From assembly GCF_003334385.1 (NCBI RefSeq), contig NZ_QOWN01000018.1: a stretch of 64,000 bases of DNA, one strand, 5' to 3'. Below the pieces are notes generated by a model. The model worked only from the letters and a program-made list of their open reading frames with translations, searched no databases and was not told the origin of the DNA. The DNA comes from Escherichia coli (lineage in GTDB: Bacteria; Pseudomonadota; Gammaproteobacteria; Enterobacterales; Enterobacteriaceae). Both the position numbers and the translations under genes were made by a program. Below, piece by piece: positions 30,681-30,709 of the stretch (positions within the stretch are counted from its first letter, which is position 1; the number at the start of each line of letters is the position of its first letter).

Positions 30681-30707
30681 AAAGGCAACCACAGGCTGCC
30701 TTTTTCT

Positions 30708-30709
<2 letters not shown>
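30681..30709 (+). terminator. Terminator-like hairpin abutting the yceD promoter
   Basis: AGGCAACC-ACA-GGCTGCCT (one mismatch) followed by TTTTTCTTT on plus strand. Confidence 0.35.

Follow-up and report, generated by a model that had tools for sequence, protein, structure and literature searches.

Why does a hairpin followed by a run of T residues, with the look of an intrinsic terminator on the plus strand, stand immediately upstream of the yceD promoter of Escherichia coli, where the nearest upstream protein-coding gene, yceF, is read from the minus strand? The question was raised by an earlier note on a window of 64,000 nucleotides (the whole stretch of DNA analysed here), which saw no upstream same-strand gene to which the element could belong, and proposed that it either insulates the genes downstream from read-in transcription or ends a transcript leaving the yceF promoter region. 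From annotation, family matching, published transcript ends and comparison across species, we conclude with high confidence that the hairpin with its T-run serves to terminate transcription of the small RNA SraB, and is an ordinary element that was already known.

The hairpin closes the sraB gene

The window is K-12-like, with 1 mismatch in 3.5 kb against MG1655 (NC_000913.3), and window coordinates equal NC_000913.3 coordinates minus 1,116,048. In these coordinates, the locus is composed of the following features:

29963-30547, minus strand: yceF CDS (MG1655 1146011..1146595), its first 7 nt overlapped antisense by annotated sraB
30541-30709, plus strand: sraB (b4418), non-coding RNA gene of 169 nt, curated in MG1655 at 1146589..1146757; Rfam RF00077
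30589-30594, plus strand: TAAACT, a -10-like hexamer 7 nt upstream of the SraB start, a putative promoter element based on sequence and start site
30601-30709, plus strand: SraB as transcribed, 109 nt, from the RNA-seq start site (Table S1, PMC7967276), comprising helix 2, hairpin 3 and the terminator
30651-30675, plus strand: SraB hairpin 3, GUAA-CC-CGCA AUGUG UGCG-AA-UUAU, from the Rfam consensus structure
30680-30683, plus strand: A-tract AAAA, an A:U extension of the terminator stem
30684-30700, plus strand: G+C stem-loop of the terminator, GGCA-A-CC ACA GG-C-UGCC, the RF00077 terminal helix with A30688 and C30696 unpaired
30701-30709, plus strand: U-tract UUUUUCUUU, ending at the Term-seq 3' end 30709; T-tract identical in 76 of 80 loci
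30708-30736, plus strand: yceD promoter-like site, TTGACT, 17-nt spacer, TAATAT, from a consensus scan; a putative promoter
30746-31267, plus strand: yceD CDS, downstream of the SraB terminator

Across the hairpin, the plus strand (30677-30713) reads GGC AAAA GGCAACC ACA GGCTGCC TTTTTCTTT GACT. The stem-loop is as the earlier note had drawn it, AAAAGGCAACC-ACA-GGCTGCCTTTT at 30680-30704 (+) and then TCTTT to 30709, with arms that are imperfectly complementary, A30688 facing C30696 as a mismatch on the plus strand. The supposed lack of an upstream same-strand gene applies to protein-coding genes only: sraB (b4418) fills 30541-30709 (+), and the framing of the hairpin as an orphan element gives way to a terminator that belongs to a known sRNA gene. 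A scan with Rfam 15 returned a full-length match to RF00077 (SraB) at 30541-30709 (+), covering model positions 1-169 of 169 with 210.6 bits against a gathering score of 130 (E 1.4e-45). The last helix of this family (30680-30704) is the hairpin in question, with the same unpaired A and C, followed by a 5-nt single-stranded tail, and the annotated end of sraB coincides with the last T of the T-run (30709). Open reading frames and the MG1655 annotation place sraB between yceF and yceD and on the strand of yceD, a context in which SraB is likewise found in Salmonella. The window and SraB (RF00077) thus share locus, strand and coordinates, with no difference at the terminator.

The gene has been known since 2001, when SraB (synonyms pke20, psrA4 and psrD) was first described by Argaman et al., and its terminator adds nothing new. 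In PGAP-annotated RefSeq E. coli genomes, no annotated feature lies over sraB, which is named only in the curated MG1655 record, and the segment 30656-30745 is at least 99% identical in 5109 of 5425 E. coli genomes. The apparent orphan terminator is therefore explained by a non-coding gene, one that is invisible to a reading of open reading frames alone, and "orphan terminator" calls elsewhere in PGAP-annotated genomes may share the same cause, namely an unannotated sRNA gene.

Mapped ends of the SraB transcript

If the element terminates transcription, plus-strand 3' ends should map near 30705-30710, as the earlier note had pointed out, and a curated Term-seq end at 1146757 (+), corresponding to 30709, does so. 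This end is listed three times, with class "primary" and gene sraB, in Supplementary file 1 of Adams 2021 (PMC7815308), in which Term-seq was applied to MG1655 in three conditions (LB at OD 0.4, LB at OD 2.0, and M63). Read counts at 1146757 are modest, 1243 and 2337 (PMC7815308). A text search of the four PMC7815308 supplementary files for the prefixes 11465-11468 returned no other coordinate on either strand; for the Rho-region table, which is among these files, this amounts to absence of evidence only. The mapped 3' end lies 9 nt past the stem-closing C30700, a canonical geometry for intrinsic termination (7-9 nt), with the general caveat that Term-seq 3' ends alone cannot distinguish termination from processing. 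Given this end at 30709 (+) and a predicted fold beyond -8 kcal/mol, the reading of the site as a plus-strand intrinsic terminator is supported.

At the other end of the transcript, a re-analysis of dRNA-seq and Cappable-seq data (PMC7967276) places the SraB start at 1146649, or window position 30601, which is 60 nt downstream of the annotated 5' end; a product of ~105 nt had already been seen by Argaman et al. 2001, as noted in PMC7967276. By RNA-seq, the annotated sraB 5' end (30541) is thus probably 60 nt too far upstream, with the 3' end unaffected. Helix 2 of the Rfam structure starts exactly at the RNA-seq start 30601, and the 109-nt SraB is predicted to fold with a minimum free energy of -33.1 kcal/mol into three hairpins, at 30601-30641, at 30651-30675 and at the terminator. 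The core of hairpin 3, CCGCAATGTGTGCGAAT, is nearly invariant across genera, and TTAAACT is invariant, with the preceding CAT-TT nearly so, in an alignment of 13 genera. The suggestion of a divergent transcript that leaves the yceF promoter region and stops at the hairpin was essentially correct, the transcript being SraB, which starts at 30601 and overlaps the yceF starts. Insulation of yceD-rpmF-plsX from read-in, the other proposal, is plausible as a by-product of SraB ending here and is unneeded to explain the hairpin.

A weak stem on the plus strand

The terminator stem has 7 positions forming 6 pairs (5 of them G-C), closed by a loop of 3 nt and followed by 8 U in 9 nt. Folding energies computed with ViennaRNA, -11.2 kcal/mol for 30675-30715 (+) and -9.9 kcal/mol for 30680-30709 (+) with the A:U extension, pass the cut-off of -8 kcal/mol below which the earlier note would have kept the terminator reading. 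The G+C stem alone (30684-30700, +) comes to -5.5 kcal/mol, which is weak for a terminator because of its one A.C mismatch. As the same mismatch splits the stem, a generic terminator scan of the window did not report the site at 30680-30709. That scan did list the minus-strand complement of SraB hairpin 3, which was taken as a chance match.

Conservation across Enterobacterales and competing explanations

We fetched 80 Enterobacterales loci of other species via the YceD protein, a search that takes no account of the hairpin. The 34 nt up to the end of the T-run occur among them in 39 distinct variants, each of which is predicted to form a stem-loop abutting the T-run, with energies from -3.8 to -16.8 kcal/mol, and the spacing between this stem-loop and the yceD ATG does not vary. 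The lower stem, AAAAGGC/GCCTTTT, is nearly fixed across the 80 loci, and the upper stem and loop turn over (CAACC/GGCTG, CAGCC/GGTTG, CGTC/GGTG, GCTG/CAG, CTT/AAG). Covariation was evaluated for 11 pairs on an unfitted MAFFT alignment of 67 distinct sequences; in alignment A1, the left part is misaligned for six insertion-bearing sequences, and only the terminator columns were used. Standard pairs fill 89.9% of the cells, compared to 40-69% after the 3' arm is displaced by 1-3 columns, both sides change in 5 of the 11 pairs, and the covariation score was matched by 3 of 500 shuffles. At the four pairs of the A-tract (30680-30683), A-U is retained in 59-67 of the 67 sequences.

These patterns bear on the possibility that the conserved signal is primarily one of DNA, either an UP-element-like tract or palindromic protein site for the yceD promoter or a distal yceF -35, in which case the hairpin would be incidental. 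Both the yceD promoter and the T-tract, at about -44 to -37 of it, are indeed nearly invariant, and on the minus strand a putative promoter, TTGCCT-17-CACATT, is found 7 nt before the yceF start 30652. However, the sequence of the upper stem and loop varies freely with pairing kept, and the G.U pairs break the dyad symmetry of the DNA; free sequence change with retained pairing and G.U pairs therefore fits selection on an RNA and not on a DNA half-site. An RNA 3' end, moreover, maps exactly 9 nt after the stem. DNA-level roles could coexist with a terminator and would not replace it, and we consider it very unlikely that such a role is the primary one.

Alternatively, the minus strand could be the functional one, with the RNA hairpin either acting in the leader of yceF, or as its attenuator, or halting antisense transcripts that emerge from yceD; the element would then be a bidirectional terminator. 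In E. coli, the minus-strand RNA of 30680-30709 folds better than its plus-strand counterpart (-14.4 kcal/mol, z -4.0 in ViennaRNA, vs -9.9 kcal/mol), because the A.C mismatch turns into a G.U pair. Like bidirectional terminators between convergent genes, the SraB site is a palindrome, flanked by an A-tract and a T-tract, that folds on both strands. Unlike them, it is not enclosed by a convergent pair, yceD lying downstream on the same strand; no minus-strand gene ends at the hairpin, and the minus-strand tail is merely UUUU followed by GCC. Searches of the Term-seq tables gave a plus-strand 3' end only, with no minus-strand 3' end or Rho region at 11465xx-11468xx. A polymerase reading leftward would pass the hairpin before it came to either yceF start (30577 or 30652), which leaves the hairpin outside the yceF mRNA. 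The comparison across species is less one-sided: the plus strand folds better in 23 of the 39 variants and the minus strand in 16. Of the 11 pair positions, 7 show G.U pairs that only the plus-strand RNA can form (54 cells), and of the 39 A.C cells, which the minus-strand RNA would pair as G.U, 32 fall at the single position mismatched in E. coli. The pairing pattern favours, though not overwhelmingly, selection on the plus-strand RNA, and we see even less room for a minus-strand function than for a primary DNA signal.

Sequence statistics by themselves would leave the hairpin within the range of chance, based on both energies and site counts. Against shuffled sequences, 30675-30715 (+) has a z-score of -1.4, with 18 of 200 shuffles equally stable, and 30680-30709 (+) a z-score of -2.4. 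A scan for hairpins directly followed by 9 nt of which 8 or more are T found 8 sites in the window, the SraB terminator being the weakest of them, and the dinucleotide-shuffled window held 4.15 such sites on average, the most extreme of 20 shuffles equalling the observed 8. These energy-based tests, non-significant by themselves, were excluded from the support for the terminator, and the hairpin is real on the strength of its annotation, Rfam match, mapped 3' end and cross-species conservation. A functionless palindrome that happens to sit beside the T-rich region upstream of a promoter has a negligible probability, given the full-length Rfam match, the curated annotation, the Term-seq 3' end listed three times, and the persistence of a hairpin at this position, through sequence turnover, in 80 loci from many genera.

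Proposed termination mechanism and probable docking of ProQ

In intrinsic termination, a hairpin in the exit channel and a destabilising U-rich hybrid cause the RNA to be released 7-9 nt after the stem. At sraB, RNA polymerase would start on the plus strand within the yceF-yceD intergenic region, at 30601 according to RNA-seq or 30541 according to the annotation, and would pass two internal SraB hairpins before reaching the terminator. The GGCAACC/GGCUGCC stem-loop would then form while UUUUUCUUU occupies the RNA-DNA hybrid, with release at 30709. We infer that SraB termination is Rho-independent.

The same module may serve the RNA after its release. According to PMC5393179, ProQ binds SraB both in vitro and in co-IP, its isolated N-terminal FinO domain also binds full SraB, and SraB further contacts the ProQ linker and C-terminal domain, i.e. 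binding extends beyond the terminator. PMC7367173 states that the FinO domain of ProQ requires a terminator hairpin (at least 2 bp) plus at least 4 3' uridines, and that ProQ-specific RNAs carry an A-rich stretch 5' of the terminator that disfavours Hfq. The 3' module of SraB agrees with these sequence features as given there, having a hairpin, an oligo-U tail and an A-rich 5' flank (AAAA, 30680-30683). It resembles the ProQ-class terminators of that source (malM 3'UTR, cspE 3'UTR and FinP) in that 4 or more U follow its hairpin and that an A-rich stretch directly 5' of the stem can pair with the U-tail. The SraB terminator itself is absent from the mutated constructs described in the passages of PMC7367173 consulted. 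The A-tract, stem and oligo-U of SraB are thus probably also an element for ProQ docking and 3'-end protection, with ProQ presumed to make contact at the hairpin.

Overlap with putative yceD and yceF promoters

Downstream, the terminator runs directly into the putative yceD promoter, the -35 of which overlaps the last two nt of SraB, in the U-tract. The arrangement TTGACT-17-TAATAT-GCGCGCCCT-ATG spans 30708-30748, with the ATG 9 nt past the -10 and a G+C-rich discriminator, and the -35, the -10, the GCGCGCCCT stretch and the ATG of yceD are invariant in 80 loci. No Shine-Dalgarno sequence precedes the yceD ATG. Because of this absence and of the distance of 9 nt between -10 and ATG, the sequence suggests that the yceD mRNA is leaderless or near-leaderless; a literature search returned nothing relevant on leaderless yceD, and the literature names yceDp1/p2, coordinates not given. 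If termination and initiation are coupled here, a polymerase that pauses at 30709 and lets go there would sit over the -35 and spacer of yceD, and could occlude the promoter or feed it read-through.

On the minus strand, yceF has starts at 1146625 (30577) and 1146700 (30652; Table S1, PMC7967276). Two overlapping, divergent -10-like hexamers are found within ATTTTAAACT (30585-30594), in which the minus-strand TAAAAT (30590-30585), 7 nt from the yceF start 30577, overlaps the plus-strand TAAACT (30589-30594). For the distal start, the TTGCCT hexamer mentioned above is the complement of 30683-30688 and is followed by a 17-nt spacer, CACATT, and then 7 nt to 30652 (-). The DNA of the terminator 5' arm may, from this spacing, double as a weak -35 of a distal yceF promoter.

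A 56-nt segment carrying helix 2

In the intergenic alignment A2, a clean 56-nt indel is found at ~30595-30650, and holds both the RNA-seq start of SraB and helix 2. The segment is present in E. coli, E. albertii, Salmonella, one Citrobacter and Intestinirhabdus, and absent from Kosakonia, Enterobacter, Raoultella, Kluyvera, Pluralibacter, Cedecea, Winslowiella and one "Escherichia sp.". Among 20 diverse loci, the RF00077 gathering score was reached only in Escherichia and Salmonella, and 11 of the 18 remaining loci, from 11 genera, scored 44-106 bits, below the gathering score because helix 2 is missing. In genera without the 56-nt segment, transcription from the conserved TAAACT would give an RNA of ~55 nt made up of hairpin 3 and the terminator. 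A fuller reading, in which SraB is coupled mechanically to its neighbours and, separately, a minimal SraB of ~55 nt is made in most Enterobacteriaceae with the 56-nt helix 2 of Escherichia and Salmonella as a lineage-specific insertion that carries the start of transcription, is one that we put forward tentatively and regard as rather unlikely. The minor leads at this locus are the conserved core of promoter, hairpin 3 and terminator, the lineage-specific 56-nt helix, and the overlap of the terminator with the invariant yceD promoter.

Two further rearrangements were seen in the intergenic region. In Escherichia sp. MOD1-EC7003 (L003:1340-1503), yceD is 99% identical to that of E. coli and the terminator is identical, and the half of the intergenic region next to yceF, which has no 56-nt segment, looks like that of Kluyvera and Pseudocitrobacter, which suggests a recombination junction inside the intergenic region. 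Three other loci, from Enterobacter sp. Cy-643 (L052), Enterobacteriaceae RIT693 (L056) and Cedecea neteri (L060), carry an insertion of ~100-130 bp with dyad symmetry between hairpin 3 and the terminator (locus ~1300-1430), with terminator and yceD promoter intact downstream. We take this insertion to resemble an ERIC/IRU element.

Other palindromic elements in the window

Between rluC and yceF, at 29883-29955, a palindromic element of the REP type matches Rfam naRNA4 (RF02564) on both strands with 54.3 and 53.4 bits, just below the gathering score of 59.5. Within plsX, 58-84 nt into the CDS, a perfect 11-bp hairpin, CAGTGCCTGCA GCAT TGCAGGCACTG, spans 31631-31660 without a U-tract. A strong Term-seq 3' end maps at 1147708, i.e. 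31660, with a score of 79571 in one table and 3078 in another, and may represent the end of yceD-rpmF transcripts or a protected processing product.
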